Assembly: GCA_030917845.1 (NCBI GenBank)
Contig: JAUPTY010000001.1
Location: forward strand, 5,289 to 69,288
Source of the DNA: Actinomycetota bacterium
Lineage (GTDB): Bacteria > Actinomycetota > Thermoleophilia > Solirubrobacterales > 70-9
Direction of reading: 5' to 3'
DNA length: 64,000 nt
Position numbers and translations under genes: made by a program. The notes below the pieces were generated by a model. The model was not told where the DNA came from. It did no database searches and saw nothing but the letters and a program-made list of their open reading frames with translations. Below, in pieces: positions 8,001-54,483 of this stretch (its first letter is position 1; each line of letters starts with the position of its first letter).

Positions 8001-8025
8001 GATTGAGAGAAATCCGGACGGGTAC
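8001..8025 (+). promoter_or_regulatory. SigB/SigF-type promoter candidate (csbD)
   Basis: GATT (8001-8004), N15, then GGGTAC (8020-8025). This is 30 nt upstream of the ATG. Confidence 0.5.
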
Positions 8026-8054: not shown

Positions 8055-8228
8055 ATGACCAATCACAAGACAGATGTAGCAAAGGGCCGCGTCAAGGAAG
8101 CTACTGGCGCCGCAACCGGAGACGACAATCTCAAGAACGAAGGCAAGACCGATCAGGCCGCAGCCTCCGTGAAGGACAAGATCGAGGGCGCGGTCGACAA
8201 GGTGAAGGACAAGATCACCCGGAAGTAG
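8055..8228 (+). CDS. csbD: CsbD family general stress protein
   Basis: 57 aa, below the ORF-track cutoff: MTNHKTDVAKGRVKEATGAATGDDNLKNEGKTDQAAASVKDKIEGAVDKVKDKITRK. The SD is AAGGAG at 8044-8049. Confidence 0.85.
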   Translation: MTNHKTDVAKGRVKEATGAATGDDNLKNEGKTDQAAASVKDKIEGAVDKVKDKITRK

Positions 8229-12766: not shown

Positions 12767-13378
12767 TTAGCCGCGGGAGGAGAGCACGCCGCGCACGGCT
12801 GCCTCGAGTACCCCAAGTGGTTCGATTACACGTTCGCGGCGATTGATCAGGATTGCGGTGGGGAGGTCCACAACGCATATCGCGACGGTCTCCACCGAGG
12901 CTCGATCCCGCTTGCCCCACAAACCCCTTGCGAGGCGTGTAAGCACTGCGAGCAGCCTGTTATCGAGTTCCTGGAGTTCGGCTCGCAGGTCGGCTGAGAT
13001 CTCCTGACCGAGGATGTCGTCGCGCCGGTAGCGAAACAGGACGGTAGCGGTGTCTGGTGCCTGGGCCTGGATGACGGCGGGAACGGAGGCGACCGCCACG
13101 GTGGCTGCGACCGCTTCCTCGAAACCGTGCTCGTCCTCGTCCTCGAGCTCACGGTCGATTGCGGCTTCCTGTTCGGTGAGGAAGCGCTCAGCCGCCCTGA
13201 GCCACATCCGGCCGAGCAGGTCAGCCCGCGAACCAAAGGCGTGGTAGAGGGTGCCGCTCGGGGCGCCGGTCGCCTGGCCGAGGGCCCGGATAGTCACGGC
13301 AGAACTCCCACCTTCCGCCAGCAAGCGTTCGGCAGCATCAAGCAATGAATCAATGTCGTGGGTGCGGGGGCGGGCCAT
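12767..13378 (-). CDS. TetR family transcriptional regulator
   Basis: MARPRTHDIDSLLDAAERLLAEGGSSAVTIRALGQATGAPSGTLYHAFGSR. The start is ATG 13378; the longer track ORF is an upstream extension. Confidence 0.85.
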   Translation of the reverse strand: MARPRTHDIDSLLDAAERLLAEGGSSAVTIRALGQATGAPSGTLYHAFGSRADLLGRMWLRAAERFLTEQEAAIDRELEDEDEHGFEEAVAATVAVASVPAVIQAQAPDTATVLFRYRRDDILGQEISADLRAELQELDNRLLAVLTRLARGLWGKRDRASVETVAICVVDLPTAILINRRERVIEPLGVLEAAVRGVLSSRG

Positions 13379-15351: not shown

Positions 15352-15374
15352 TCCCGACCGGCCAGGACTGATAC

Positions 15375-15402
15375 TTGACATATACCCCATAGGGGTATAA
15401 TG
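15375..15402 (+). promoter_or_regulatory. Promoter with embedded CsoR operator palindrome (copper operon)
   Basis: TTGACA (15375-15380) is followed directly by TATACCCC-ata-GGGGTATA (15381-15399), a perfect 8-bp inverted repeat of the CsoR box type (GC-tract dyad). TATAAT-like hexamers at 15396-15401 and 15404-15409 lie only 2-9 nt from the ATG, giving a very short or absent leader. Confidence 0.75.
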
Positions 15403-15410
15403 TATAATTC

Positions 15411-16367
15411 ATGAGCACTCCGACCAAGCTTTTTCTCTTCGGAATCAGCCTGATGTTGATCTTCGGTTTCTCGTTTTTCGCCGGCAAGGCCCTGATTCCC
15501 GAAGAGACAGTCTCGACCTGGACCAGGGAGGCCGAGGATTCGGCCGACGACCACGGAGATTCGGGTGGCCACGAAGCGGACGCAGGCCATCGGCCCGCAA
15601 GTGCTACCCCCGAGCCCGTGAGCGGGCTCTCGATCGAGCAGGACGGTTACCGGATGACCGCGGTGAAGGCTCCGACGAGCGTCGTTGGCGGGGGTGAGCT
15701 CTCTTTCCAGATCCTCGATCCCGCGGGGGCTCCGCTGACCGACTTCACGACCAGTCACGAGAAGGACCTGCACCTGATCGTGGTCGGAAGCGACGGCTCC
15801 GGGTTCCGGCATGTACACCCACGGCTTGATCGTCGCTCGGGTACCTGGACGCTGCCATGGACATGGACAGACGGCGGCAGCTACCGGGTCTTCGCTGACT
15901 TCGTGCCAGCCGGGTCGAATGACGCTGCCAGCCTGACTCTTTCCCGCAGCGTTCAAGTCACTGGCAGCTTCAGCCCGGTTGTGCCGGTCCTGTCGAGAAC
16001 TGACAGGGTCGGCGGTTACAAAGTCAGACTTTCCGGCGAGCTGGAGGCAGGGGAGAGCCGCGATCTGACCGCGAAGATCACCGAGGACGGTGCCCCGGTT
16101 ACAGACCTGCAGCCCTACCTCGGGTCCTTCGGGCATCTGGTTGCCTTGCGTGAGGGTGACCTCGCCTATCTTCACGTCCACGCCGGAGCGGATCACGAGT
16201 CCGTTCAGGAGCAGCCATCCGATGGTCACGGTCATGGCACTCACTCGGCCGGCCCCGACATCGATTTCATGACCGCAGCACCTACCCCGGGTCGCTACCT
16301 GATGTACCTCGATTTCAAGGTTGACGGCGACGTACATACCGCTGAATTCGTACTGGAGGCAAAATGA
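15411..16367 (+). CDS. Secreted/anchored His-rich protein of unknown function, first gene of the copper operon
   Basis: 318 aa with an N-terminal TM ([19 protein letters not shown]). His/Asp tracts are [15 protein letters not shown] and [10 protein letters not shown]...DGHGHGTH. A 4-nt ATGA overlap links it to copA. Confidence 0.7.
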
Positions 16368-18688
16368 GCGCTCAGACAACCCGACCGGAAGTGGCCGGAG
16401 AGGATCTGGAACTGGAGATCGGCGGGATGACCTGCGCTTCCTGCGCCACCCGGATCGAGAAGAGGCTCAACAAGCTCGAAGGCGTCGACGCCAGCGTCAA
16501 CTACGCGACCGAAAAGGCCAGGGTCAATGCCCCGCATGGCACCGACCCGAACCTGCTGATCGCCGAGGTCGAGAAGACCGGCTACAGGGCGGCGGTCCCG
16601 AAGTCTGTCCATAGTCATGGTCACGATCATGACCATGGTGGACTGGCTGGTCCCGAGGACGACCGGGAGCAGGAATCGCTTCGGATCCGTTTGATCGTAT
16701 CGACACTTCTGGCGGTACCGGTCATCGCGATGGCGATGTTCGAGGCTCTCCAGTTCGAGTACTGGCAGTGGGCGTCTCTGACTCTTGCCGCACCGGTGGT
16801 CGTGTGGGGGGCCCTGCCATTTCACAGAGCCACCTGGCGGAACCTGCGTCACGGCGCGACAACCATGGACACCCTGGTCTCGATGGGTATCTCGGCGGCC
16901 TTCATCTGGTCGCTCTACGCGCTCTTCCTTGGCACGGCAGGCGAGCCCGGCATGACCCATCCATTCGAGATAACCGTGTCACCACAGAACGGCGCCGCGA
17001 ACATCTACCTCGAAGTCGCTGCGGGGGTGACGATGTTCCTGCTCGCCGGAAAGTTCTTTGAGGTTCGTTCCAAACGTCGGGCGAGTTCTGCGATGCGCGC
17101 CCTGCTCGAGCTGGGCGCCAGGGAAGCCACTCTGCTGAAGAATGGTGAGGAGGTCCGCGTTCCAGCCGACCAGCTGGTGGTGGGTGACGAGTTCGTGGTC
17201 CGCCCGGGTGAGAAAGTCGCGACCGACGGCCAGATCATTTCCGGTTCCTCGGCCGTCGACCAGTCGATGATTACCGGGGAGTCCCTTCCGGTAGAAGTTG
17301 GTGAAGGTGACGCAGTGACCGGCGCCACGGTGAATGTTGGCGGCCGTCTGGTGGTCCGGGTGACGAAGGTCGGATCCGACACCCAGCTGGCCCGCATGGC
17401 AAGAATGGTGGAGGACGCCCAGTCGGGCAAGGCGGATGTCCAGCGGCTCGCCGACCGGATCTCCGGGGTGTTCGTGCCGGTGGTCATCGCGATCGCGGCC
17501 GGAACTCTGGGGGCCTGGCTCGGTGCGGGCTTCCCGGTTGAAGCCGCCTTCACGGCCGCGGTGGCAGTGCTGATCATTGCCTGCCCTTGCGCCCTCGGAC
17601 TGGCGACTCCGACCGCACTTCTGGTCGGTACTGGCCGAGGCGCCAACATGGGAGTGTTGATCAAAGGTCCGGAGATCCTTGAATCCACACGGAAGGTGGA
17701 CACGATCGTCCTCGACAAGACCGGCACGGTGACCACCGGCCAGATGACCCTGACCGAGGTGGTCACGACGCCGGGAACCGGACGCAAGGAACTGCTGCGG
17801 CTGGCCGGTGCGCTTGAGAACGCTTCCGAACACCCGGTCGCCAGGGCGGTAACGGAAGCGGCGATCGCCGAAACCGGGGCCCTCCCTGACCCCGAAGGTT
17901 TCGCCAACGTCGAGGGCAGGGGAGTACAGGGCGTGGTCGAGGGACATGCGGTTCTGGTCGGACGAGAAGAGCTCCTCGCGGAGTGGTCGCAGCGACTTCC
18001 GGAAGAACTTGCTGAATCGAAACGGAAAGCAGAAAGCGAAGGCAGGACCGTCGTGATTGCCAGCTGGGATGGCGAGCCGCGGGGATTGCTCATGGTCGCC
18101 GACACGATAAAACCGACGAGCAGCCAGGCGGTAAGGCAGTTCAGGGAACTCGGACTCGACCCGGTATTGCTCACGGGCGACAACCCTGAAGTAGCCGGCC
18201 AGGTAGCGGCCGAGGTCGGTATCGAATCGGTGCGCTCGGAAGTTCTTCCCGGCGAGAAGGTCGAGGAGATCAAGCGGCTCCAGCAGAAGGGCAGGGTCGT
18301 CGCGATGGTGGGGGACGGAGTGAACGACGCCCCGGCTCTGGCCCAGGCCGACCTCGGACTGGCGATGGGCACCGGCACCGACATCGCGATCGAAGCGTCG
18401 GACATAACCCTCGTCCGGGGTGACCTGCGCAGCGCCGGGGACGCGATCCGGCTCTCCCGCCGGACGCTCGGCACGATCAAGGTGAATCTCTTCTGGGCCT
18501 TCGCCTACAACATCGCAGCGATACCTCTCGCGGCCCTGGGGCTGCTCAACCCGATGCTGGCTGGTGCCGCAATGGCTTTTTCCAGCGTTTTCGTCGTCGG
18601 CAACAGTCTGCGCCTTCGCTCCTTCAGAAGTACTGCGGAGGATTCTCCCGGTGATGCACCGAAAGGAACCAGAGATGACAGCAAGTGA
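16364..18688 (+). CDS. copA: Copper-translocating P1B-type ATPase
   Basis: HMA domain [24 protein letters not shown] motif [19 protein letters not shown] and [10 protein letters not shown]. Confidence 0.95.
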
Positions 18689-21588: not shown

Positions 21589-22548
21589 TCAGCCGGGGAG
21601 CTTCTGCTGCGTCTCCAGCACCGGCTGGAAAGGGTGATCCCCACTCGAAAGCGAGTCGATAGCGGCATCGGGAGTGCAGGCCAGCAAGGACCGGTCATCA
21701 TTGTCCAGGGACCTCTCCAGAAGCTGCCAACTGACCGGGAACGAGACAGAGGGGCTAGGTGTGGCCCTCATCGAGTAGACGGCGACCGTGGTCTTGTGCC
21801 GGGAGTTCTGACTCCAGTCGATCAGGACTTTCCCTTTCCTCAGGCTCCTGGTCATTCTGGATACGACCTGATCAGGCAGTTCGCTCTCAAACCCGCGGGC
21901 GAGGCTGTGGGCGAAGGCACCGGTTCGCTCGAAGTCGATGTCTGGTGAGTTCAGCGGCAGATAGACCTGAATGCCTTTTGAGCCGGAGATCTTCGCGAAT
22001 GACCGGAGTCCCTGACGTTCGAAGGTTTCATTGATCAGCAAGGCGATCTCAGCGCAGTTAAGAATGCCTGCTGGAGATCCAGGGTCGAGGTCAAAGACGA
22101 CCGAGTCAGGGACAGTGGGGGTCTCGACCCGGGCCAGAGGGACATGGAGTTCGATCGAGGCGAGATTGGCCATCCAGATGAGAGTTGGCAGGTTGTTGAT
22201 CAGGCAGTACTCGATCGATCCGCCCCTGGAGTCGCTGCTGACAGTTGCGGTTTCGACCCAATCGGGGCGGTAGTCGGGACAGTGCTTCTCCCAGAATCCG
22301 GGTTCGCTCGTGCCATCAGGGAACCTCCGCATGGTCACCGGACGGTCGCGGAGGTGGGGGAGGAGCACGGGCGCAACGGCCGCGTAGTAATCGATCAGGT
22401 CCCGTTTGCGGAATCCCGACTCCTGGTAGAGAACCCGGTCCAGGTTGGAGAGCGTCATCGGCGTTCCGTCCACTTCCAGCTTCCATTTATCCGGACCACC
22501 GACCGCCTCTGAAGTGAGGCGACGATCATCGTAAAGATCAAGACTCAA
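21589..22548 (-). CDS. ligD: NHEJ polymerase/primase (stand-alone LigD Pol domain)
   Basis: 319 aa with a TTG start overlapping the ligase stop (TTGA). LSNLDRVLYQESGFRKRDLIDYYAAVAPVLLPHLRDRPVTMRRFPDG...FDLDPG is the LigD PolDom pattern. Confidence 0.88.
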   Translation of the reverse strand: MSLDLYDDRRLTSEAVGGPDKWKLEVDGTPMTLSNLDRVLYQESGFRKRDLIDYYAAVAPVLLPHLRDRPVTMRRFPDGTSEPGFWEKHCPDYRPDWVETATVSSDSRGGSIEYCLINNLPTLIWMANLASIELHVPLARVETPTVPDSVVFDLDPGSPAGILNCAEIALLINETFERQGLRSFAKISGSKGIQVYLPLNSPDIDFERTGAFAHSLARGFESELPDQVVSRMTRSLRKGKVLIDWSQNSRHKTTVAVYSMRATPSPSVSFPVSWQLLERSLDNDDRSLLACTPDAAIDSLSSGDHPFQPVLETQQKLPG

Positions 22549-23489
22549 GGCCGCTCCTCCCTGACGACCTCAGCCGGAGTCTTGTCCGGGCGAAATCCCA
22601 GGAACACGGGGTTTCGGACCCGGCCGTCATGGGTCCATTGCGTGAACCTGACCTCGATTGCGCACTCCGGTCGTGCCCAGCGGGCATTGGCAGGAATGCT
22701 GGCCCGGTCAGCGGTATCAAACGGGGACTCCAGCTGGCTCTTCTCCTCGAGATCCGCCGTGATCCGTGACAGCAGCTGGTCGTCGAAGCCCGTGCCCACA
22801 CGCCCGGCAAATCGCAGCCGGGCTGTTCCCGGCTCGTAGTAGCCAAGCAGCAGAGAGCCAAGCGTTCCCGACCGATGGCCTTTGCCCGGCAGCCAGCCGC
22901 CCACGACGAACTCCTGCCTTCTTGAGTTCTTCATCTTGATCCAGTGCCGGCTCCGCTTGCCTTCGAGGTAGGGGCTGTCAAGCTGCTTGGCGACGATGCC
23001 CTCCAGGCCCAGATCCGATGTGGCGGCCAGAACTTCAGACGGTTCGCCCGCGAGCCGGTCCGGCACGGACCAGCGCTTCCCTTCGATCCTGAGCGACTCG
23101 AGCTTCTCCCGTCGAGCTTCGTATGGCTGATCCCGGAGGTCGACACCGCCTGCCCAGAGCAAGTCAAAGATCAGGAAGGTTGACTTGAGATGCCGCTCGG
23201 TGCGCGACTGCATCAACTGGAAGTCGGGGTGGCCGAGATCATCGAAAACCACCAGTTCCCCATCAAGAATCGTCCCCCGGGCCGACTTGTCCTGACCAAG
23301 CTCATTCAACTCCGGAAACGACGGCGTGATGTCATTGAGCCGACGGCCCTGAAGCCGGAGACCGCGATCACAGAAGGCGATGGCCCGGTAACCATCCCAC
23401 TTGACCTCGCATTGCCAGCGTGAAGAATCGTCAGCCTCACCAAGGTGGGCTTTCATCGGTTCGATCCGGGATGGCATCCTGTTTGGCAC
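22545..23489 (-). CDS. ligD: ATP-dependent DNA ligase (stand-alone LigD ligase domain)
   Basis: 314 aa with the adenylation motif I CEVKWDGYRAIAF. The start is GTG 23489 or ATG 23477. Confidence 0.9.
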   Translation of the reverse strand: MPNRMPSRIEPMKAHLGEADDSSRWQCEVKWDGYRAIAFCDRGLRLQGRRLNDITPSFPELNELGQDKSARGTILDGELVVFDDLGHPDFQLMQSRTERHLKSTFLIFDLLWAGGVDLRDQPYEARREKLESLRIEGKRWSVPDRLAGEPSEVLAATSDLGLEGIVAKQLDSPYLEGKRSRHWIKMKNSRRQEFVVGGWLPGKGHRSGTLGSLLLGYYEPGTARLRFAGRVGTGFDDQLLSRITADLEEKSQLESPFDTADRASIPANARWARPECAIEVRFTQWTHDGRVRNPVFLGFRPDKTPAEVVREERP

Positions 23490-23502
23490 AGTGATTACCG
23501 GT

Positions 23503-23527
23503 TTACCCGTCCTGGTGTCAATGAACC
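23503..23527 (-). promoter_or_regulatory. SigB/SigF-type promoter candidate (ligase-polymerase operon)
   Basis: The minus strand reads GGTT (23527-23524), N15, then GGGTAA (23508-23503). Confidence 0.5.
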
Positions 23528-23540
23528 GGATTCGGGGTAC
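23515..23540 (+). promoter_or_regulatory. SigB/SigF-type promoter candidate (ku-ku operon)
   Basis: GTGT (23515-23518), N16, then GGGTAC (23535-23540). This is 10 nt upstream of the ku ATG and physically interleaved with the divergent ligase promoter. Confidence 0.5.
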
Positions 23541-23549
23541 TTAGACTCC

Positions 23550-24329
23550 ATGGCACCGCGCTCTATCTGGAACGGAACCCTCGCCTTCGGAATGGTTCGA
23601 GTGCCGATCAAGCTCTACTCGGCGATCGAGCCGAAGGGCATCGGCTTTCGCGAGATTCACACGAAGGACGAGTCGACTTTGCGTCACCGGCGAATCTGCA
23701 GGAAAGAAGGGAAGCCGGTCGACAAGGACCAGATCGGAAAGGGATACGAAATCTCATCCGGCGAGTACGTGCTGCTGGAACCGGACGAGATCAACGCCGC
23801 TGCGGGTGACGGAGCCAAGACCATCGAGATCGAGGAGTTCGTTGATGTCAGTTCGATCGATCCATTCCAGTTCAGCAAGACTTACTTCCTCGGTTGCCGC
23901 GAAGATGCCACACCATTCTCGGTTCTTTCCGCGGCCCTCGAGAAGACAGGCAGGGCAGGAATCGGCCGATTTTCTTTCCACAATCGCGAGTATCTGGTCG
24001 CGGTCAGGGCCTTTCAGGAACGGCTCGCGCTCCACACCCTGAGGTTCTCGGATGAGATCGTCGACGTCGGTGATCTCGACATGCCCGGGGGCGGAAAGAA
24101 GCCGACCGCCAAGGAAGTGAAGATGGCACGCCAACTCATTGCCGGGCTCACGGACGAGTTCGAGCCCGACGGCTTCCAGGACGAGTATCGCGCCGCAGTG
24201 ATGGACCTGATTGAGCGAAAGGCTGAAGGAAAGAAGCCGAAGAAGAGCAAGTCGAAGAAAAAGAAGCCAACCGGCGATCTTTCGAAAGCGCTCGAAGAGA
24301 GCCTTGCGGCTCAGGGAGCTTCGAACTGA
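23550..24329 (+). CDS. ku: Ku protein (NHEJ DNA-end binding), paralogue 1 with a Lys-rich tail
   Basis: Starts at ATG 23550: MAPRSIWNGTLAFGMVRVPIKLYSAIEPKGIGFREIH. The C-terminus is KKPKKSKSKKKKPTG. Confidence 0.92.
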   Translation: MAPRSIWNGTLAFGMVRVPIKLYSAIEPKGIGFREIHTKDESTLRHRRICRKEGKPVDKDQIGKGYEISSGEYVLLEPDEINAAAGDGAKTIEIEEFVDVSSIDPFQFSKTYFLGCREDATPFSVLSAALEKTGRAGIGRFSFHNREYLVAVRAFQERLALHTLRFSDEIVDVGDLDMPGGGKKPTAKEVKMARQLIAGLTDEFEPDGFQDEYRAAVMDLIERKAEGKKPKKSKSKKKKPTGDLSKALEESLAAQGASN

Positions 24330-25240
24330 TGCCGCGTCCGCTCTGGAAAGGGACTGTCTCCTTCGGTCTGGTCAGTGTGCCGGTCGAGCTCTACTCCGCG
24401 ATCACGGACCGGGGAGTTCACTTTCGCGAGATCCACACCAGCGACGGATCGCCGGTGAAGCATGTCCGGTACTGCGCTGCCGAGGACAAGCCGGTCGATC
24501 AGTCAGAAGTCGGTCGGGCCTACGAGCTTGATGACGGTCGGCTGATTCCGGTCACCGACGAGGAACTGGAGAACCTGGAACCCGAGAAGACCCAGACCAT
24601 CGAGATCGAAACCTTCGTCACCCGCACCGATGTCGATCCAATCCGGTTCGACCATCCCTATTACATGGTCCCGGGGAACAGGTCGGTCGGAACCCTGCGG
24701 GCCTACCGGCTGCTGGTCGAGGCAATGACCGAAGGGGACCTCCTGGCGATGGGGACCTTTGTAATGCGCAGCCGCGGGTATCTGGCGGCGATCCGGGTCA
24801 GGGGAGATGCGCTGGCACTTTCGACCATGCACTTCCCGGCCGAGATCAGGTCGATATCCGATCTGCCCGGGCCGGCCGACGCCAAGATCGCCGCCGCCGA
24901 GCTCGACGACATGGTCGCGATCGTCGGCGAGCTATCCGCAGACTGGGATCCGGATTCATACAGCGACCGCTACAGAGCCCGACTGAAGAAGGTGATCACC
25001 AGCAAGAAGAAGGGCCGCAAGATCAAGGCTCCTGCCGAACCTGAAGAAGCACCAACAGCCGCCCCGGACCTGATGGCAGCCCTGAAGGAGACGCTCGCCA
25101 GCTCGCGCCGGCGCAGCCGCAGGCCGAAGGACCTCGAGGGCCTGTCAAGGGATGACCTTTACGAGCTTGCCTCGAAACGGGGCCTGAAGGGAAGGTCGAA
25201 GATGAACAAGGGCCAGTTGATCGAGGCTCTCGGAGACTGA
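24329..25240 (+). CDS. ku: Ku protein, paralogue 2 with a C-terminal HeH/Rho_N (SAP-like) module
   Basis: MPRPLWKGTVSFGLVSVPVELYSAITDRGVHFREIH. Its start overlaps the ku1 stop by 1 nt (TGATG). The tail is LSRDDLYELASKRGLKGRSKMNKGQLIEALGD. Confidence 0.92.
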   Translation: MPRPLWKGTVSFGLVSVPVELYSAITDRGVHFREIHTSDGSPVKHVRYCAAEDKPVDQSEVGRAYELDDGRLIPVTDEELENLEPEKTQTIEIETFVTRTDVDPIRFDHPYYMVPGNRSVGTLRAYRLLVEAMTEGDLLAMGTFVMRSRGYLAAIRVRGDALALSTMHFPAEIRSISDLPGPADAKIAAAELDDMVAIVGELSADWDPDSYSDRYRARLKKVITSKKKGRKIKAPAEPEEAPTAAPDLMAALKETLASSRRRSRRPKDLEGLSRDDLYELASKRGLKGRSKMNKGQLIEALGD

Positions 25241-25263
25241 TTCATTCGTGAGGCGACGGGTAC
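25239..25263 (+). promoter_or_regulatory. SigB/SigF-type promoter candidate (small HeH protein)
   Basis: GATT (25239-25242), N15, then GGGTAC (25258-25263). Confidence 0.5.
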
Positions 25264-25325
25264 CCGCCTGGCAAGGTCGGGTTCGATCCTGACTCTGAAA
25301 ACAAGACGAGAAGGAGCTGATCAGG

Positions 25326-25592
25326 ATGCCAAAGGGCTCAGATCACGGACCGAGCGTCAAAGACGACAAGCTCTACGAAGAATTGCGCGAAGACAGTGCC
25401 AGCAAGGAGAAGGCAGCCCGGATCGCCAACGCGAAAGCTTCCTGTGAGAACGTCGGAAAGAAGGGCGGCGAAGCCGAGGACTACGAGGACCGCACCGTAG
25501 AGGAGTTGCGCGACCGGGCCGGGGAAGTCGGCATTGACGGCCGCTCAGACATGGACAAGAAGGAACTGATCAACGCCTTGCGCAACCACTGA
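25326..25592 (+). CDS. Small acidic protein with a C-terminal HeH/Rho_N-like module
   Basis: 88 aa with KDDKLYEELREDSASKEKAARIANA and RTVEELRDRAGEVGIDGRSDMDKKELINALRNH. Confidence 0.8.
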   Translation: MPKGSDHGPSVKDDKLYEELREDSASKEKAARIANAKASCENVGKKGGEAEDYEDRTVEELRDRAGEVGIDGRSDMDKKELINALRNH

Positions 25593-25609
25593 CCGGGCGG
25601 CAGGGCATC

Positions 25610-26197
25610 TCACCAGGCCGTTTCAAGGGCTCTTGCCACGGTAAGGAGATTGCCGGCAGCGGTGCGACCCGTTTCGTGTGACCAATCCCGGCCAGCTGTG
25701 CTGGTGAGATAGTCGTCGCCGGGCCCGGGACCACGGTTCCAGTAGGTCCAGGCTTGACCAGGGACGGTGTAACCAATGTCAATCAGCCCACCGGCAACTT
25801 CGGAGATCACGTGGTGGGCTCCGTCCTCGTTCCCGGTGACGACGACGCCGGCCACTCGCCCGTAGGCAACGGGGTTTCCTTGATCGTCGCTTTCGCTGAT
25901 CATCGCGTCCATTCGCTCGAGAACCCGCTTGGCAACGCTGGAAGGCTGTCCGAGCCAGGTCGGGGAAGCGATGATCAGGATGTGCGCTTCGAGTAGTCGT
26001 TCGTGGATCTGCGGCCAGCCGTCCCCTTCGCCTTCATCCGATGTGACACCCGGAAGAATCTCGTGGTCAACTGCCCGCAGCAACTCCGTCTCGACACCAT
26101 GGGATTCAAGCTCCTCCAGAACCACCCGGGTGAGGGCCGCGGTATTCGATTCTTCCGGGTCGGACTTCAGCGTGCAATTGATTGCCAGTGCTTTCAT
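25610..26197 (-). CDS. Flavodoxin-like fold NAD(P)H-dependent FMN reductase family protein
   Basis: 195 aa: MKALAINCTLKSDPEESNT...HILIIASPTWLGQPSSVAKRVLERMD. Confidence 0.8.
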   Translation of the reverse strand: MKALAINCTLKSDPEESNTAALTRVVLEELESHGVETELLRAVDHEILPGVTSDEGEGDGWPQIHERLLEAHILIIASPTWLGQPSSVAKRVLERMDAMISESDDQGNPVAYGRVAGVVVTGNEDGAHHVISEVAGGLIDIGYTVPGQAWTYWNRGPGPGDDYLTSTAGRDWSHETGRTAAGNLLTVARALETAW

Positions 26198-26207
26198 GGC
26201 TACACCG

Positions 26208-26233
26208 GTACCCGCAGTCCCGATCTCACAACC
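26208..26233 (-). promoter_or_regulatory. SigB/SigF-type promoter candidate (flavodoxin-like gene)
   Basis: The minus strand reads GGTT (26233-26230), N16, then GGGTAC (26213-26208). The -10 element ends 10 nt before the ATG, so the transcript would be near-leaderless. Confidence 0.45.
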
Positions 26234-26259
26234 GTCTCCGGCATCAGCCAGGGGGCGAC

Positions 26260-26487
26260 CTACATCGGCAGCCAGATCACACCCCCCGGTTCCGCCGCAA
26301 CTTCACCCACCAGGGCATAGATCCCTGCGCCGAGCACATCACCCAGAACGAAAAGTAAAGGCAGTTTGCCTGTGATGGCCCGGCCATCCCGGAGGTCCCT
26401 ATCGCCAATCTTCAGCCATGAAAGCAGGGTACCCGGGGCTCGGCCCGTTTCACTCTGCAGAAGTTCGGCAGACGGCCGCGCCGACAT
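26260..26487 (-). pseudogene. Truncated N-terminal remnant of an APC-family amino acid permease
   Basis: The ORF ends ...GKLPLLFVLGDVLGAGIYALVGEVAAEPGGVIWLPM*. This is the TM1 GxG region of APC permeases, but only ~75 codons exist before a stop and the next gene. Confidence 0.5.
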
Positions 26488-26489
26488 TC

Positions 26490-26514
26490 GTTTGACCGTC
26501 CAGCCAGCGGGTAG
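26490..26514 (+). promoter_or_regulatory. SigB/SigF-type promoter candidate (CBS gene)
   Basis: GTTT (26490-26493), N15, then GGGTAG (26509-26514). Confidence 0.55.
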
Positions 26515-26555
26515 CCAGAGCCAGCAGGAACCGACCAACTACAAGGAGGCAGGAA

Positions 26556-26978
26556 ATGAGCAAATCAGCAAGCGAAATCATGACCGGCGGCACCGAATGC
26601 GTCGGCGAGAATGACAGCGTTGCGGATGCGGCCACTCGCATGACCGAATTGAACGTGGGAGCGATGCCGATATGTGGCGAAGACAACCGTCTCAAAGGCA
26701 TGCTCACCGACCGGGATATTGTCACCGCCGTAGTCGCCAAGGGCAGGGACCCGCAGGAAGTGATGGCGGGCGAGCTTAGAGACGGAAAGCCGGTGACGAT
26801 CGGGGCTGACGACTCGATCGAAGAGGCCATCAGGACCATGAAGGAACATGCCGTCAGGCGACTGCCGGTGATTGACGGGCACGACCTCGTGGGCATCGTT
26901 AGCCAAGGCGACATCGCCAAGCAGGTTTCGGATGAAGCGACCGGAGATCTGATCGAAGCGATCTCTACAGCGTCTTGA
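26556..26978 (+). CDS. CBS-pair domain protein (Hrp1-like)
   Basis: 140 aa with two CBS repeats (IMTGGTECVGENDSVADAATRM..., GMLTDRDIV, AVRRLPVIDGHDLVGIVSQGDI). Confidence 0.88.
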   Translation: MSKSASEIMTGGTECVGENDSVADAATRMTELNVGAMPICGEDNRLKGMLTDRDIVTAVVAKGRDPQEVMAGELRDGKPVTIGADDSIEEAIRTMKEHAVRRLPVIDGHDLVGIVSQGDIAKQVSDEATGDLIEAISTAS

Positions 26979-26996
26979 GCGAACTTCGCCACAGGC

Positions 26997-27028
26997 GACC
27001 CGGGAGCCCTTCACCGGGCTCCCGGGTC
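26997..27028. terminator. Bidirectional hairpin terminator between the CBS gene and the sigma factor gene
   Basis: 13-bp stem GACCCGGGAGCCC (26997-27009) / GGGCTCCCGGGTC (27016-27028) with a 6-nt loop. Confidence 0.75.
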
Positions 27029-27036
27029 GTTTCCTG

Positions 27037-27852
27037 TCAGACGCTATGGGACAGCTGCCGGGATTCCTTTTCGGACTTTTCTTCGACCAACTCCTCGTTC
27101 AGGCTGTCGAAGATCTTGCGGAGCTTCCGTGAGACGTGCATCTGGGAACAGCCAATTCTCTCGGCAATCTGCGATTGCGAGAGCTCCTCGCGGTACCTGA
27201 GGATCACGATCTCGCGGTCATCCTGCTCGAGTGCCTCGAGGGCCTCCGTGAGCAGCATCTTTTCCTCGATCCTCTCGTAGCCGGGATCCTCGCTGCCGAG
27301 TACATCTTCCAGGGATGCCTCTTCTTCGCTTTCGGCAGACGCAAGGCCGATGGCGTGCCTCGTTCGAACCGCTTCCTTCGCTTCGAGCACCTGTTCGACC
27401 GGGCAGTCCATGGCGGCAGCGACTTCGGTCAGGCTCGCCGACCTGTCCAGCTCACCAGAAAGGTCACGTTCAACCGACTCGAGGCGGCCGATCCTCTCGT
27501 AGATTCCACGCGGGACCCTGATCGCAGACACGCGGTCGCGGAAATGCCGCTTCAGCTCGCCGTGAATGGTGGGGGAGGCGAAAGCGAGAAACGGAAGTCC
27601 CCGCTCGGGGTCGTACCGGTCGATCGCGTTGACCAGACCGAGACTCGCGATCTGGATCAGGTCATCGAGTGACTCGGCCTCCCCCCGGTACCTGATTGCA
27701 ATGCTCTTCGCGTAAGGAAGAAACCGCTCGGTCAACTCCCTCCGTACCGCCGGTTCATCTCTTCTTTGCCAAAGGTCTTCTTCGTCCAGAAGGCCCGGGT
27801 GATCCTGCCTGTGAATGCGCCGGTTCATGCCTGAATGCTCCTTGCTGCTCAA
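27037..27852 (-). CDS. SigB/SigF/SigG-family (group 3) RNA polymerase sigma factor
   Basis: 271 aa. LDDLIQIASLGLVNAIDRYDPERGLPFLAFASPTIHGELKRHFRDRVSAIRVPR covers region 2. The region 4 HTH is SQSQIAERIGCSQMHVSRKLRKI. Confidence 0.9.
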   Translation of the reverse strand: MSSKEHSGMNRRIHRQDHPGLLDEEDLWQRRDEPAVRRELTERFLPYAKSIAIRYRGEAESLDDLIQIASLGLVNAIDRYDPERGLPFLAFASPTIHGELKRHFRDRVSAIRVPRGIYERIGRLESVERDLSGELDRSASLTEVAAAMDCPVEQVLEAKEAVRTRHAIGLASAESEEEASLEDVLGSEDPGYERIEEKMLLTEALEALEQDDREIVILRYREELSQSQIAERIGCSQMHVSRKLRKIFDSLNEELVEEKSEKESRQLSHSV

Positions 27853-27931
27853 TTTGTCTCATGCCCTTGAGCCTCAATAAGTCTGGGCCGTGCACCTTCC
27901 AGCTATGTATTTCCGAATTCGTATTTTCTAA

Positions 27932-28462
27932 TCAACCTCGGCCCCGTTTCCATGTCCAGAGCCGTTTGGACCGTCGTTCAGCTTCCCTGGAAATGATCCT
28001 CTGGAAGTTCTTGCCTCCTCGATCAAACGTGCTGATCACTGCTTCCGGTGTGGCCGCGGAGTCAAAGTTGCACGGGATCCAGTCGGCGGCCCGGACCTGG
28101 TGTATCCCAGATCTTCCGGCGGCCTCGGAATCGTCATACCACCATGGACCGATCACTTTGCCGAGTCGAAAGACGTCATCCGAAGTGCGAGTCCAAACCA
28201 GGCTTCCTTCGGGCAGACCAGCGAAACGGACGAGCATGCGCGCGGCCTTGTCTCCGTGACTCTCGGCCGTCCGGTTCACCGCCTCCTCGAGCGTCTCGGG
28301 AACTGCTTCCAGCGGTTCACCGATACCGACAATCCCGCGTTCCGTCCCCAGCCGGGATCCCTGGAAGGCCCCCGAATCGAAACTCCGGGCTCGCATCGGA
28401 GCCCGAAATACGCACGGTGCTTCGTCATTGAATTGTCTATCAGCCAAGGCGTTCTGCTTCAC
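27932..28462 (-). CDS. Hypothetical protein upstream of and co-directional with the sigma factor gene
   Basis: 176-aa ORF with a GTG start. I recognise no motif (it is not HATPase/RsbW-like or STAS-like). Coding is supported by composition and by its position filling the gap. Confidence 0.55.
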   Translation of the reverse strand: MKQNALADRQFNDEAPCVFRAPMRARSFDSGAFQGSRLGTERGIVGIGEPLEAVPETLEEAVNRTAESHGDKAARMLVRFAGLPEGSLVWTRTSDDVFRLGKVIGPWWYDDSEAAGRSGIHQVRAADWIPCNFDSAATPEAVISTFDRGGKNFQRIISREAERRSKRLWTWKRGRG

Positions 28463-28504
28463 GAGGGTTCCCGCACCGCGGGGCTACGAAACCGCGTCTC
28501 TTCT

Positions 28505-28530
28505 GAGTCGGCCCGGACCGAACCGGGTAC
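28505..28530 (+). promoter_or_regulatory. SigB/SigF-type promoter candidate (PfpI/DJ-1 gene)
   Basis: GAGT (28505-28508), N16, then GGGTAC (28525-28530). Confidence 0.45.
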
Positions 28531-28561
28531 TCCAGACATGAACCGACAATGAAAGGACCTC

Positions 28562-29107
28562 ATGAGTAGCAGACTGAAAGGCAAGAGAATTGCGATCCTC
28601 GCCGACAACGAAGGCGTAGAGGAGATCGAACTGAAGGGTCCGCTCCAGGCCCTGAAGGATGCGGGTGCCTCGGTGGAGGTCCTGGCGCCGGAAGAAGGAG
28701 AAGTTCAGGCCTTCAACCACCTGGACAAGGGAAGCCGCTTCACTGTGGACCGCAAGGTCACGGACGCTTCCGTGGACGATTACGCGGCCCTGGTGTTGCC
28801 AGGCGGAGTTGCAAATCCGGACAATCTGAGAACCGATCCGGAAGCAGTCGGATTCGTCCGTGAGTTCTTCGACAACGGCAAGACAGTCGGAGCAATCTGC
28901 CACGCTCCCTGGACCCTGATTGAGGCGGGTGTGATTGATGGCCGGACACTTACTTCATGGCCCAGCCTGAGGACTGACATCGAAAACGCCGGCGGTACTT
29001 GGGTCGATCAAGAGGTTCACATCGAAAATGACCTGATCACCAGCCGCAAGCCAGACGACCTGGAGATCTTTTGCCACGAAGTCGTGGAAGCAGTCGCTGC
29101 GGACTGA
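28562..29107 (+). CDS. DJ-1/PfpI family protein (type 1 glutamine amidotransferase-like)
   Basis: 181 aa: KRIAILADNEGVEEIEL..., ALVLPGGVANPDNLR, and the nucleophile elbow GKTVGAICHAPW. Confidence 0.9.
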   Translation: MSSRLKGKRIAILADNEGVEEIELKGPLQALKDAGASVEVLAPEEGEVQAFNHLDKGSRFTVDRKVTDASVDDYAALVLPGGVANPDNLRTDPEAVGFVREFFDNGKTVGAICHAPWTLIEAGVIDGRTLTSWPSLRTDIENAGGTWVDQEVHIENDLITSRKPDDLEIFCHEVVEAVAAD

Positions 29108-29116
29108 TCAGCGCTG

Positions 29117-29575
29117 CTAGCCATACCGGGCCCGGAGCGGGAAGTAGAGCCAGATCATCCCGAAAGCCGCGAGTGAGGTCACACCAGCGGCAATTGTCGG
29201 GATGGACCCGTACAGGTAGTCCGTAATCAAAGTCACCGCACCCGTCACCGCCAGCGCAAGGAAGGCGAGCCCCCAGATCATGAACCGGTTGGCGAACAGG
29301 AGGAGCCTTTCCTTCTGCTGGCGGCGAAAGGTGAGCCGATGGAAGGCGGTCGGCGCGATGAGAAGAAGTGAGGAACAAGCGGTGAATATCAGGGTTGCGA
29401 AGTAGAGCGACTCCTGAAACCCGGTGACCGAACCGAAACGTGACTGGAAGGGGACGGCCAGCAGAAAGGCGAAGAGAACCTGGACCCCGGGCAACGCCAC
29501 ACGCAGCTCCTGGAGCAGGTCGTTGAGATTGCGGTCGGTGCGCTCCCACGATTCTTCGTGGCGTGGATTGGTCAT
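29117..29575 (-). CDS. DUF6328-like membrane protein
   Basis: MTNPRHEESWERTDRNLNDLLQELRVALPGVQVLFAFLLAVPFQSRF. I prefer ATG 29575 (SD GAGG); ATG 29593 is an alternative. Confidence 0.7.
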   Translation of the reverse strand: MTNPRHEESWERTDRNLNDLLQELRVALPGVQVLFAFLLAVPFQSRFGSVTGFQESLYFATLIFTACSSLLLIAPTAFHRLTFRRQQKERLLLFANRFMIWGLAFLALAVTGAVTLITDYLYGSIPTIAAGVTSLAAFGMIWLYFPLRARYG

Positions 29576-29642
29576 TTGAGCCTCGGAAGGCATGGTTCCC
29601 GGCCTGACCGGCTTGAAACGGAACTTTCGTCCAGGCTCGCCC

Positions 29643-29668
29643 GGTTGGAGCCGCCGCCACGGGGGTAC
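29643..29668 (+). promoter_or_regulatory. SigB/SigF-type promoter candidate (HAD hydrolase gene)
   Basis: GGTT (29643-29646), N16, then GGGTAC (29663-29668). Confidence 0.45.
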
Positions 29669-29702
29669 ATCCAACTGGCAAAAGACGATCTGAAAGGAAG
29701 GG

Positions 29703-30395
29703 ATGCCCGAAAAAAGCGATGAAATAGAAGCGCTGATAGTGGACATCGACGGGACTCTCGTCGACTCGAACTACCAGCATGTTCTGGCATGGCAACGGGC
29801 CTTCGCCGCCTTCGACATAGCTGCAGAAGCCTGGAAGGTCCATCGCTACGTAGGCAAAGGTGGCGACCAGATGGTGGCTTCGGTGGCCGGGGAAACCGCC
29901 GAGCAGGCACATGGAGATGAGATCAGGGAAGCCGAGTCCGAGAATTTTCAGGAGCTGATCGATGAAGTCAGGCCGTTCGAGGACGCCTCGGGATTCCTGA
30001 ACGAAATGCACGGACGTGGCCTTCGACTGATACTCGCCAGTTCTGCCAAGGGAAACGAGGTTGATCACTATCTGGGTTTGCTCGATGCCACCGAGGCCAT
30101 TCACGGCCACACCAACTCCTCTGATGTTGACGCGACCAAGCCGGAGCCTGACCTGGTTCTGGCGGCGCTCTCAAAACGCGAAGGGCGGAAGGCACTAATG
30201 ATCGGCGACTCGATCTGGGACGTGGAGTCCTCGAAGCGGGCGGAAATCGACTGCCTCGCAGTGCTGACAGGTGGCTTTTCCAAGGCCGAGCTCCGCTCGG
30301 CCGGGGCGAAGGAAATCCAGCCTTCGCTCAGCGATCTGATTCAGCTGCCGGCTGGGAGGGTCGCTAGGGACCGCACCGATCGAATCTCGGGTTGA
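29703..30395 (+). CDS. HAD family hydrolase (phosphatase)
   Basis: 230 aa with motif I VDIDGTLVDS and motif IV IGDSIWDVES. Confidence 0.85.
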   Translation: MPEKSDEIEALIVDIDGTLVDSNYQHVLAWQRAFAAFDIAAEAWKVHRYVGKGGDQMVASVAGETAEQAHGDEIREAESENFQELIDEVRPFEDASGFLNEMHGRGLRLILASSAKGNEVDHYLGLLDATEAIHGHTNSSDVDATKPEPDLVLAALSKREGRKALMIGDSIWDVESSKRAEIDCLAVLTGGFSKAELRSAGAKEIQPSLSDLIQLPAGRVARDRTDRISG

Positions 30396-30400
30396 TCCCG

Positions 30401-30425
30401 GTGTAGCTCACCCCCTCGCGGGTAC
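30401..30425 (+). promoter_or_regulatory. SigB/SigF-type promoter candidate (interrupted helical-protein gene)
   Basis: GTGT (30401-30404), N15, then GGGTAC (30420-30425). Confidence 0.5.
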
Positions 30426-30464
30426 CTCCTGCATGGAAAAGGAAGCAACCGAAAGGACACCGAC

Positions 30465-30944
30465 ATGGCAGAAATCACGACAGTCGAAGAGAAGCTCGCG
30501 GAAGTAACCGGCCTGGCGCAGGCCGCGCAGGGCGCGATCGAGAAGGTCGCTCCGACGATCGAAGACGAGCAGGCTTTGTCTTCTCTCGAGACGATGAAGA
30601 GCGAGGCTGAGCAGACCGAAGAGCGCTGCACCTCGGTGATCGACAAGCGGGATGGGTCGAAGACCGCAATCCTCGACAAGGCCCGGGAAACCAAACAGGA
30701 AGCCACCGAGATGATGTCCACCTATCTGGGTGACGACTCGGATGGACTCGACGGAGTCGAATTCATGACGATGGCCGAAGCGGGTTAAGTGGGTCACTGG
30801 GAAATCCTCGGCGAGCTGAGCCGCAGAAGCGGAGAGCCTGAGCTTCAGGAACTCGTTCAGTGGGCGCTCCCGATCCAGGAGCGTCACCTGTCTGACGTCC
30901 GCAGCGGTTCCCTCGCCCTCGCTGGTCAGGTAGACACCGAATAG
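30465..30944 (+). pseudogene. Helical (ferritin-like?) stress protein gene interrupted by an in-frame TAA
   Basis: The 107-aa ORF ends ...FMTMAEAG-TAA (30786-30788). The same frame then continues directly as VGHWEILGELSRRSGEPELQELVQWALPIQERHLSDVRSGSLALAGQVDTE* to 30944. One G-to-T change of GAA would explain the stop. Confidence 0.6.
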
Positions 30945-30971
30945 CAGCCGGTTCCTTTAACGAACCGTCCG

Positions 30972-31002
30972 CAAAGGGCGGCGCTGGGGTCGCCGCCCTT
31001 TG
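30972..31002 (+). terminator. Hairpin terminator
   Basis: 12-bp stem CAAAGGGCGGCG (30972-30983) / CGCCGCCCTTTG (30991-31002) with a 7-nt loop, followed by TCTTCCCTTCC. Confidence 0.75.
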
Positions 31003-31207
31003 TCTTCCCTTCCGGAAGGAGAGTCGAACTCGAAAGAGGCAGCGCTTGATAGCCTCGCTCGCGGTGTGCCGGGAAGACTGGTCGGCGTCCAGCAGCCGTG
31101 CCCGAAAGACGACCCGTGAAACGACACCAACTCTCCGCATTCCCGCCCCTTGGCGACCATGACGTCACCCCGCGCCTGAAGCGCAGCGAACCGGGAGCAT
31201 CCCCCCG

Positions 31208-37326: not shown

Positions 37327-37351
37327 GTTTCATCGCGACGACACGGGGTAG
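37327..37351 (+). promoter_or_regulatory. SigB/SigF-type promoter candidate (CDGSH gene)
   Basis: GTTT (37327-37330), N15, then GGGTAG (37346-37351). It ends 9 nt before the ATG, so the transcript would be near-leaderless. Confidence 0.55.
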
Positions 37352-37360
37352 CTCCGGGGT

Positions 37361-37579
37361 ATGTCGAGCGATCAGGAAGTCACAGTCATTACGCCTTACC
37401 GAAACGGGCCCTACCTGGTCCGCGGACCTTTCCGAATCGCTGACCAGGACGGCAAAGAGATCGAGATGAACCGCGAGGTCGTTGCTCTTTGCCGCTGCGG
37501 CAAGTCCAGGATCCGGCCACTCTGTGACGGCACCCACAAGACCATCGGATTCGAGTCTGAGAGCAACCGCGAGGACTGA
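37361..37579 (+). CDS. CDGSH iron-sulfur domain protein
   Basis: 72 aa with CRCGKSRIRPLCDGTH. Confidence 0.9.
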   Translation: MSSDQEVTVITPYRNGPYLVRGPFRIADQDGKEIEMNREVVALCRCGKSRIRPLCDGTHKTIGFESESNRED

Positions 37580-37616: not shown

Positions 37617-38666
37617 TCAGCTCAGTAGAGAAGTTCGGTCCTGCTCCCAGCAACCGAGCAGGTGGACAGCCAGACGCTGCTCGAGAAGGATCAGGGCACG
37701 CGCCCCGAACTGAATGTCACTCGTGAGCTCGGGCTCCAGCATCGCGAGTCCCTGGGCGAGGTCGTAGGCGGCAATGTTCTCGTGGACCGAATCGGCTTCG
37801 ACGTGCTCGTCGAAGAAGCGTGTCACCGGTTCGTCAAATCCGAGTCGCCTCAGACCGTTGCCGTAGCTTCGATTGGGGATTGCGGAACTCATCTCGAACA
37901 TCGCGAGATGGCCGGTGATTGCCCCTCGCCGGGATCGCTTCTTCCCCAAGGCTGACATCAGATTGACGGTTGCCAGAGTGGGGGCGGGTATCCGGTCCAG
38001 GTAAGCGTTCTCCGAGGAGTCGAGCCCGACCCCTTCCATGGCGCTGGCGAAAAGCCTCGAATGCATCCGCTCAGGATCGCCACCCCCGTACTCATCGGTC
38101 TGCACTTCCACCAGCGCCGCTTTCGGCTTTCCGGCGAGGCGTGGAATCGCCCAGGTATGGGGATCGGCTTCCTTCAGCTGGTAGAGCGAACGGTGCACCA
38201 TGAATTCACGAAACTGGTGGACATCAGCGCTGAACTCGAGGTATCTGGAGAGTCCCGGGCCTTCATCTTCTCTTTCGAGCCGGAAGAGCTCATCACCGAC
38301 TGCCCCCGGAATGACTGGTTCGAAGCCGCCGACTGCCGTCTCAAGGCTCCCCAGGAAGGCAGCATCGAGAAAGTTCCGGAGCTCGAAGATCTCCACGTCC
38401 TCTTCCCAGGAGTCTCCGATTCCGGGAATCGAGCGGTAGTCCAACTCGTGCAGTAGGTACTGGGTGAGTTGGAAGTCTCCACTTCCGGGGTCCGTGGCCG
38501 CCGCGAGAATCTGTTGGCTGTGAATGGAGATCAGATCACTGCCGCCGGGTTCGGAAAGATGCTCGATTACTGCTTCGCTGATTGGGCCCCGGGGCGTGAT
38601 CTCGAAGATGACCGGGGTGCCTTCGATTATTGCTTCTGATGCTGTCAACGAAACGGTGCCTTTCAT
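37617..38666 (-). CDS. Iron-containing redox enzyme family protein (heme-oxygenase-like fold)
   Basis: 349 aa with EVQTDEYGGGDPERMHSRLF and FDEHVEADSVHENI, two E/H-rich helices typical of the Haem_oxygenase_2 family. Confidence 0.7.
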   Translation of the reverse strand: MKGTVSLTASEAIIEGTPVIFEITPRGPISEAVIEHLSEPGGSDLISIHSQQILAAATDPGSGDFQLTQYLLHELDYRSIPGIGDSWEEDVEIFELRNFLDAAFLGSLETAVGGFEPVIPGAVGDELFRLEREDEGPGLSRYLEFSADVHQFREFMVHRSLYQLKEADPHTWAIPRLAGKPKAALVEVQTDEYGGGDPERMHSRLFASAMEGVGLDSSENAYLDRIPAPTLATVNLMSALGKKRSRRGAITGHLAMFEMSSAIPNRSYGNGLRRLGFDEPVTRFFDEHVEADSVHENIAAYDLAQGLAMLEPELTSDIQFGARALILLEQRLAVHLLGCWEQDRTSLLS

Positions 38667-38696: not shown

Positions 38697-38721
38697 GTAC
38701 CCGTTATTAGCCGAACTACAC
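38697..38721 (-). promoter_or_regulatory. SigB/SigF-type promoter candidate (heme-oxygenase-like gene)
   Basis: The minus strand reads GTGT (38721-38718), N15, then GGGTAC (38702-38697). Confidence 0.5.
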
Positions 38722-54459: not shown

Positions 54460-54483
54460 CTACCCAAGTGGGACTGTCGAGAC
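54460..54483 (-). promoter_or_regulatory. SigB/SigF-type promoter candidate (DUF305 gene)
   Basis: The minus strand reads GTCT (54483-54480), N14, then GGGTAG (54465-54460). It ends 9 nt before the ATG. Confidence 0.4.

Follow-up and report, generated by a model that had tools for sequence, protein, structure and literature searches.

A 64,000-nucleotide (nt) stretch from the genome of an uncultured, soil-type Solirubrobacterales actinobacterium (GenBank assembly GCA_030917845.1, contig JAUPTY010000001.1; hereafter the window, with a G+C content of ~62%) contains a real SigB/SigF-type regulon island, a known regulatory scheme in an unstudied lineage, and in that sense a well-supported but unsurprising result. 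Twelve sites of the form GNNT-N14-16-GGGTA stand before genes that include those for non-homologous end joining (NHEJ), redox defence and small stress proteins. We read these sites as promoters of the SigB/SigF class, used by a group-3 sigma factor, for which the product of the gene at 27037-27828 (minus strand) is the likeliest candidate, and, judging from the sequence, we give this reading a probability of about 0.8. An original prediction, made from the letters of the DNA alone, had listed these 12 sites, and all of them are present at the coordinates and in the orientations that it gave; its claim that the motif matches the published actinobacterial SigB/SigF consensus also holds (PMC4694148; PMC8346170). 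The next relatives of the sigma protein are found in Solirubrobacterales metagenome-assembled genomes, and the Ku relatives indicate the same; for Thermoleophilia, a literature search turned up nothing on promoters of the SigB/F class.

The evidence from the window was set beside related contigs (labelled L001-L055), which came from exact-protein look-ups and a metagenome scan, a search of genome contigs with the sigma protein having led to two close relatives. The sigma orthologues on these contigs are 55-77% identical to the sigma of the window, and the Ku orthologues 65-69%. Since several loci form near-identical pairs (L052/L053, L017/L018 and L020/L029), the independent lineages, about eight, are fewer than the locus counts given below. 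Two contigs of ENA sample ERZ25039597, L001 and L055, have many genes in fragments, such as those for sigma (L055) and the heme-oxygenase-like protein (L001), which suggests frameshift-rich assemblies, and for this reason they were used for DNA motifs only. An independent two-block position weight matrix (PWM) was built from 44 sites, all of them from related contigs, and used to scan the window.

The best match to this matrix, at 22.4 bits, is the site before csbD (GATT-N15-GGGTAC, 8001-8025, plus strand). Within the densest part of the island, the operon of the ATP-dependent ligase and the primase-polymerase is preceded by GGTT-N15-GGGTAA (23503-23527, minus) and the ku-ku operon by GTGT-N16-GGGTAC (23515-23540, plus), so placed that the two promoter-like sites overlap back to back. 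There follow the sites of the DUF7218/Rho_N gene (GATT-N15-GGGTAC, 25239-25263, plus; 21.3 bits), the flavin mononucleotide (FMN) reductase gene (GGTT-N16-GGGTAC, 26208-26233, minus), the CBS-pair gene (GTTT-N15-GGGTAG, 26490-26514, plus; 21.3 bits), the DJ-1/PfpI gene (GAGT-N16-GGGTAC, 28505-28530, plus), the HAD hydrolase gene (GGTT-N16-GGGTAC, 29643-29668, plus) and a conserved 159-codon gene (GTGT-N15-GGGTAC, 30401-30425, plus). Farther along are the sites of the CDGSH iron-sulfur gene (GTTT-N15-GGGTAG, 37327-37351, plus), the heme-oxygenase-like gene (GTGT-N15-GGGTAC, 38697-38721, minus) and, weakest of all, the DUF305 gene (GTCT-N14-GGGTAG, 54460-54483, minus). All 12 have GGGTA[C/G/A] as their -10 element, as do the 44 sites from relatives, and all 12 have GNNT as the -35 element on the same strand; the spacing is 15 in 32 of the 44 sites from relatives. 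Two further sites carry a variant -10 word: GTTT-N16-GGGAAC before the pair formed by Hyp176, a conserved gene without an assigned function, and the sigma gene (28467-28492, minus; 14.1 bits), and GTTT-N15-GGGAAC before the DUF6328 gene (29595-29619, minus; 15.5 bits), whose counterpart in L053 has GATT-N16-GGGTAC with an ATG 10 nt past GGGTA. With these GGGAAC variants counted, every transcription unit at 21.5-31 kb has a site of the SigB/F class, out of roughly 50 units that a strict gap criterion gives for the whole window.

The placement of the motif is far from what would be expected by chance. Sense start zones, taken as -110 to +110 around the starts of the longest open reading frames (ORFs), make up 11.5% of both strands, and yet 14 of the 21 distinct places in the window that match G..T-N14-16-GGGTA lie in them (binomial p = 3.6e-9). 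Among all 1024 pentamers, GGGTA leads by five orders of magnitude over the next best, the overlapping CGGGT (3.5e-4), and 20 control pentamers of the same composition gave at most 7 in-zone matches. GNNT accompanies GGGTA at 14 of 18 occurrences in start zones versus 7 of 54 elsewhere (Fisher p = 7e-7); the latter corresponds to a background of 13%, close to the one in six that the original prediction had guessed for chance occurrences. Scanning the window with the relatives' PWM gave 15 matches of at least 14 bits, where Markov-simulated sequence leads one to expect 0.9 (maximum 2), and 11 of the 12 sites are within the top 13 matches, DUF305 being the exception. When the variant -10 words GGGAA, GGGCA, GGGTT, GGGTG, GGGTC, GGTAT and GGGGA were tried, no class was enriched near gene starts, the sole variants retained being the two conserved GGGAAC sites. 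In the window the motif was not found before the genes for GAPDH, rpiA, SUI1, enoyl-CoA hydratases or acyl-CoA dehydrogenases. Sigma-70-type promoters were also sought: at 21.4-31.2 kb there were two matches, both within genes and at chance level, and none in the intergenic regions of the island. A clear TTGACA-N17-TATAAT promoter is present elsewhere in the window, at the copper operon (15370-15405, plus), which indicates that the housekeeping promoter type differs from the island motif.

The motif is also kept in relatives, where the -35 and -10 boxes are retained while the spacers have changed. It was found in all orthologous upstream regions of the HAD gene (7/7), of Ku1 (4/4), of the ligase gene (4/4; L051-L053, and L050 with a GGGAAA variant), of the DUF7218 gene (3/3; GTTT-N15-GGGTAG in L050, L052 and L053) and of the heme-oxygenase-like gene (GTGT-N15-GGGTAC in 5/5). 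For the 159-codon gene the count is 2/2, with the motif in L018, L021 and L055, and for the CBS gene it is 2/2 informative regions (GTTT-N15-GGGTAC in L052 and L053). The FMN reductase orthologue in L050 has GATT-N16-GGGTAC. Conservation is less complete for PfpI (3/4, with orthologous sites in L002, L052, L053 and L055), for csbD (3/5, the sites in L017, L018 and L020 reading GATT-N15-GGGTAC) and for CDGSH, where it is 1/3, L001 showing the motif with identical geometry. As controls served nhaA and the genes inside operons, Ku2 and the primase-polymerase gene, none of which has a GGGTA-type site; in three of the control regions there is a single GGGAAC match, and it falls within coding sequence. 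Two syntenic blocks underlie these comparisons. In the first, the HAD gene is divergent from Hyp176, followed by csbD in some contigs, the sigma gene, in some the 159-codon gene, the heme-oxygenase-like gene and, farther off, CDGSH; in the second, the primase-polymerase and ligase genes are divergent from ku-ku, with the DUF7218, PfpI, DUF6328 and CBS genes nearby. Across 55-77% identity, the sigma orthologues continue to have HAD, csbD, heme-oxygenase-like and Hyp176 genes with the motif as their neighbours. On the Patulibacter contig L054, where the Hyp176 homologue has no neighbouring SigB-like sigma, no GGGTA-type site was found in 12.5 kb.

By their distance from GGGTA to the start codon, the genes form a short and a long group. 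In the short group the distance is 10 nt for ku, CDGSH and DUF305, 11 nt for the FMN reductase gene and 14 nt for the ligase gene, which starts with GTG, so that GGGTA-N10/11-ATG is read at four genes; at ku, GGGTAC-N9-ATGGC is invariant in four relatives (L050-L053). In the long group it is 30 nt for csbD (start at 8055), 31 for the heme-oxygenase-like gene, 32 for PfpI, 35 for HAD, 40 for the 159-codon gene, 42 for CBS and 63 for DUF7218. The leaders of csbD, CBS, PfpI, HAD and the 159-codon gene contain an AAGGAG-like ribosome-binding site (RBS), and none was seen in the heme-oxygenase-like leader. With GGGTA only 10-14 nt before the start codon, the short-distance group implies leaderless or near-leaderless mRNAs, and such a fixed short geometry would be hard to explain by anything but a -10 element. 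A similar arrangement is known from the SigF table of Mycobacterium smegmatis, in which a distance of 8-11 nt between promoter and start codon is frequent (PMC4694148).

The sigma protein contains the Pfam regions Sigma70_r2, r3 and r4 in 263-271 amino acids (aa), without a region 1.1/1.2 extension. Its best NCBIfam match is TIGR02980 (SigBFG) at 212.6 bits, just under the cut-off of 234.35, so that the protein is best called SigB/F/G-like, not a curated member; against the SigF model PRK07122 it scores 195.7, the cut-off being 372. The original prediction had named a SigB/F/G-family sigma factor at 27037-27852: regions 2, 3 and 4 and the best match agree with this, while curated membership of the family does not follow. 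Homologues at ~50% identity carry the NCBI names SigB, SigF or SigG. The best PDB match is 8x6g_H (a 256-aa sigma in an entry without name or species, E 1e-37), which has the same region 4.2 recognition helix, SQMHVSR; SigF 1l0o_C comes next. A start at the ATG at 27828, which follows an AAGGAG, is likely and gives 263 aa, the length of a 100%-identical database protein (P0001). The sigma had been called an orphan, and in the 64 kb no RsbW, RsbV or PP2C partner is encoded; among ~65 proteins scanned across the window there was no HATPase_c_2, STAS or PP2C domain. With no canonical partner-switching gene present, the term is fair for the window, and a partner could be encoded in another part of the genome. 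Two other sigma genes in the window (42134-42670 and 59911-60810) are of the extracytoplasmic function (ECF) type, and ECF promoter words differ from the GNNT/GGGTA motif.

Directly upstream of the sigma gene, on the same strand, is Hyp176 (27932-28462), for which 15 homologues were found and no Pfam, NCBIfam or PDB sequence match. It is syntenic with the sigma gene in L001, L002, L017, L018, L020 and L055, and not in Patulibacter. Its AlphaFold2 model (predicted local distance difference test score 87.8) gives a weak match to the YTH/EVE-like (PUA-like) fold, with a TM-score of 0.41-0.48, and does not support the source label "GAF domain" attached to one homologue. We considered Hyp176 as a dedicated anti-sigma factor and rejected this, in view of the missing domain matches and the weak YTH/EVE fold match, the intervening csbD before sigma in L017, L018 and L020, the lack of the gene in L003 and L038 at its place between the HAD and sigma genes, and the Patulibacter homologue without a SigB-like neighbour. 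Hyp176 is more likely a regulon member. The GTTT-N16-GGGAAC site before Hyp176 is also found in L001, L002 and L055, and is a possible autoregulatory promoter of the Hyp176-sigma pair. Closer to the sigma gene itself, alignment with relatives points to a site at 27909-27933 (minus) that reads GATT-N15-GGAAAT in the window, and GATT-N15-GGGTAT in L055 and GAGT-N15-GGGTAA in L001; the more distant L017 and L018 have a canonical GGTTT-N15-GGGTAC upstream of sigma.

Under the reading that we prefer, RNA polymerase with a group-3 sigma would recognize G(T/G/A)(T/G)T as its -35 and GGGTA(C/G) as its -10 element, at a spacing of 15 ± 1 nt, and transcription would begin a few bases past the -10. For ku, the FMN reductase gene, CDGSH, DUF305 and nearly so for the ligase operon, the start would fall on or just before the start codon and give a leaderless mRNA; the other seven genes would have 5' leaders of ~20-55 nt. 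One stress-type sigma would thereby control a compact island in which NHEJ repair (ligase, primase-polymerase and two Ku proteins) stands together with redox and detoxification genes (FMN reductase, DJ-1/PfpI, CDGSH and heme-oxygenase-like) and small stress proteins (CsbD, the CBS pair and DUF7218), and GTTT-N16-GGGAAC before the Hyp176-sigma pair would provide positive autoregulation. That this particular sigma reads the sites is something that we infer, as are the transcription start positions, the inducing signal, the restraint of sigma activity and, from gene content alone, the label "dormancy".

A number of observations weigh against this reading. The sigma score lies just below the SigBFG cut-off, and the sigma-proximal site of the window is degenerate. 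The -35 element is low in information, and several -10 elements sit inside the palindrome GGGTACCC. No motif was seen before CDGSH in L017 or L029, and the DUF305 site scores only 5 bits on the relatives' PWM, its one support being the GGGTA-N10-ATG geometry. Finally, the reader of the sites may be another sigma than the local one, because SigB/F paralogues are common, cross-recognition is known in Streptomyces, and 64 kb of the genome was seen.

This last point leads to the strongest of the alternatives, in which the sites are read mainly by a paralogous SigB/F sigma encoded outside the window, with the local sigma as a regulon member or a redundant reader. In its favor, the SigB homologues of Streptomyces coelicolor cross-recognize promoters (PMC8346170), the related contig L004 has two SigB/F paralogues within 10 kb, the local sigma-proximal promoter is degenerate, and most of the genome lies outside our view. 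However, the linkage of the sigma orthologue to motif-bearing genes at 55-77% identity, the canonical motifs before the sigma gene in several relatives and the conserved GTTT-N16-GGGAAC before the Hyp176-sigma pair all tie the local sigma to the motif, and we consider a paralogue from outside the window an unlikely main reader. A second alternative takes GGGTACC(C) as a half-palindromic transcription-factor operator and not as a -10 element. The palindrome GGGTACCC is indeed read at 3 of the 12 sites and GGGTACC at two more, as at many sites in relatives, but seven sites lack it (GGGTAG, GGGTAA, GGGTACT and GGGTACA), the G..T at 15 ± 1 nt upstream is strand-specific and always oriented toward the gene, the constant 10-11 nt to start codons suits a -10 element, and no candidate regulator gene is conserved alongside the sites, all of which makes an operator very improbable. 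That the motif is an artefact of composition or codon usage, or the housekeeping promoter of the lineage, is scarcely credible: GGGTA is over-represented throughout the window (72 observed vs 39.6 expected), but the control pentamers, the simulated sequences, the unenriched variant pentamers, the genes before which the motif was not found and the sigma-A-type promoter of the copper operon all speak against this alternative.

Among the known systems, csbD, named for "controlled by sigma B", is a regulon member in Bacillus subtilis as it is here. The B. subtilis sigma-B consensus, GTTTAA-N12-14-GGG(A/T)A(A/T) (quoted in PMC8346170), is also the same, whereas the adjacent RsbV/RsbW/RsbU partner switching of that organism has no counterpart in the window. 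M. smegmatis SigF uses GTTT-N14-19-GGGTA, with variant -10 words GGGAA and GGGCA that occur also at the sigma operon itself, and has a dense regulon block beside sigF (MSMEG_1758-1804) (PMC4694148). SigF of M. smegmatis and M. tuberculosis thus resembles our system in the -35 and -10 words, the spacing, the proximity to start codons and the dense block adjoining sigF. In mycobacteria, however, sigF adjoins the anti-sigma gene rsbW/usfX, none of which is found in the window, and the sixth -10 base in the window is mostly C or G by comparison. The published SigF table of M. smegmatis lists neither Ku nor LigD. The SigB homologues of S. coelicolor use GNNT/GTTT with GGGTAC/T and cross-recognize promoters (PMC8346170), and share with our sites the loose GNNT -35, the near-invariant GGG and position-5 A, and the frequent GGGTAC. 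They differ in that SigB and its eight homologues form a nine-member cross-recognizing family for osmotic stress and differentiation.

The NHEJ genes of the island comprise two Ku genes and the domains DNA_ligase_A_M/C and LigD_Prim-Pol, the ligase and polymerase being separate ORFs, and no phosphoesterase domain was seen with Pfam in the proteins of this locus. Little is known of NHEJ regulation outside two cases, sigma-G of B. subtilis and RpoE2 of Sinorhizobium meliloti (PMC6379672), which control ykoU/ykoV and ku3-ku4/ligD4, respectively (PMC6379672; PMC3656841). As in those bacteria, ku and ligD functions would here be under a stress or dormancy sigma, and S. meliloti likewise has a two-ku operon with ligD transcribed separately (PMC6379672; PMC3656841). 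The promoter word is another one, since RpoE2 belongs to the EcfG-type ECF sigmas and the consensus of sigma-G is different. Unlike in S. meliloti and B. subtilis, ligase and polymerase are separate genes here, divergent from ku-ku by way of overlapping back-to-back promoters.

The gene identities named in the original prediction were upheld by Pfam, with some refinement of names and start codons. The minus-strand operon has the ligase gene first (22545-23489) and the primase-polymerase gene second (21589-22548). On the plus strand, Ku1 (23550-24329) is followed by Ku2 (24329-25240), the start at 23550 being preferred over a longer ORF since Ku relatives have 255-259 aa. The gene first described as a HeH protein is DUF7218 with Rho_N (25326-25592, plus), and the one described as flavodoxin-like is an FMN reductase (25610-26197, minus). 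The CBS-pair gene (26556-26978, plus) precedes the sigma ORF (27037-27852, minus), and beyond Hyp176 are the genes for DJ-1/PfpI (28562-29107, plus), DUF6328 (29117-29746 as an ORF on the minus strand, with a revised start at ~29593 or 29575) and the HAD hydrolase (29703-30395, plus). Outside this cluster lie csbD (8055-8228, plus, with a revised start and an AAGGAG RBS), the CDGSH gene (37361-37579, plus), the Haem_oxygenas_2 gene (37617-38666, minus) and the DUF305 gene (53809-54450, minus). In the 159-codon gene (30465-30944, plus), kept in relatives, the reading frame is broken by a TAA at 30786-30788, where relatives have GAA and run full length; L021 has a different in-frame stop, likewise at a glutamate codon. 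Either a true nonsense mutation or a mistake in the assembly could account for the TAA, and the full-length 159-residue protein has no Pfam family. A GC-rich terminator-like hairpin at 30965-31000 marks the closing end of the island.

Further matches to the motif were seen in the window. GTGT-N14-GGGTAC at 12809-12831 (minus; 8.9 bits) lies at the start of an SfLAP-family membrane protein gene, with a GTG 12 nt past GGGTA, and GGGT-N16-GGGTAC at 59702-59726 (minus; 11.4 bits) lies before a YCII gene, which is directly downstream of an ECF-like sigma with DUF6596. In the intergenic region between the FMN reductase and CBS genes, GAGT-N17-GGGTACCC at 26410-26434 (minus; 16.6 bits) has no obvious downstream gene; after it come an ATG 10 nt past GGGTA, a 6-codon ORF and a terminator-like hairpin, a second stretch noted in this region being 26359-26371 (minus). 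The 12-mer GCCATGAAAGCA of the FMN reductase start is repeated on the opposite strand in this same intergenic region. An aldehyde dehydrogenase/trehalose synthase operon was considered as a regulon member and rejected, its sole candidate being GGCT-N16-GGGTGT with a PWM score below 0. At 5044-6471 (minus), the TreT-type trehalose synthase gene follows the aldehyde dehydrogenase gene, and a wax-ester synthase/diacylglycerol acyltransferase gene (51474-52943, minus) is found past DUF305 in the same direction of transcription; both have storage or desiccation-type functions, and a convincing motif directly before either gene is lacking.

Next to the island, divergent from nhaA (31208, plus), is a noncoding block of ~95 nt (31045-31135) that is near-invariant in L001 and L055. 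It contains a promoter-like GTTT-N15-GGGCAC (31122-31098, minus), whose -10 is GGGTAC in both of those contigs, and a minus-strand RNA of ~100-130 nt that ends at the 30965-31000 hairpin is predicted. The block has no Rfam match and nothing meaningful among known RNA families; from its sequence, a sigma-dependent small RNA and a control region of nhaA are both conceivable. Elsewhere, a cyclic di-AMP riboswitch (RF00379, 77 bits, 2366-2509, minus) lies upstream of a 162-aa ORF (1777-2265) that has no Pfam family. The copper-operon promoter contains the palindrome ATACCCCATAGGGGTAT, which we take to be CsoR-operator-like, and stands before the genes for a 318-aa protein and for a P-type ATPase of the copper type (16364-18688); promoter and palindrome are kept in L001 (~19886), where a Trns_repr_metal gene is adjacent.

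A more speculative picture would have a SigB/F-like sigma that works without adjacent partner switching, in a conserved and self-contained island that co-regulates NHEJ and redox defence, with Hyp176 and the ~95-nt block perhaps part of the control circuit; as a whole we regard it as unlikely. The most useful new point is the placement of NHEJ in a SigB/F-type regulon. It leads to a prediction for Solirubrobacterales-like genomes, namely that one stress sigma would turn on end-joining repair together with redox and desiccation-type defences. Hosts of this type are abundant and barely cultured soil actinobacteria, and the promoter model may be used to annotate stress regulons and leaderless genes in metagenome bins of Thermoleophilia.

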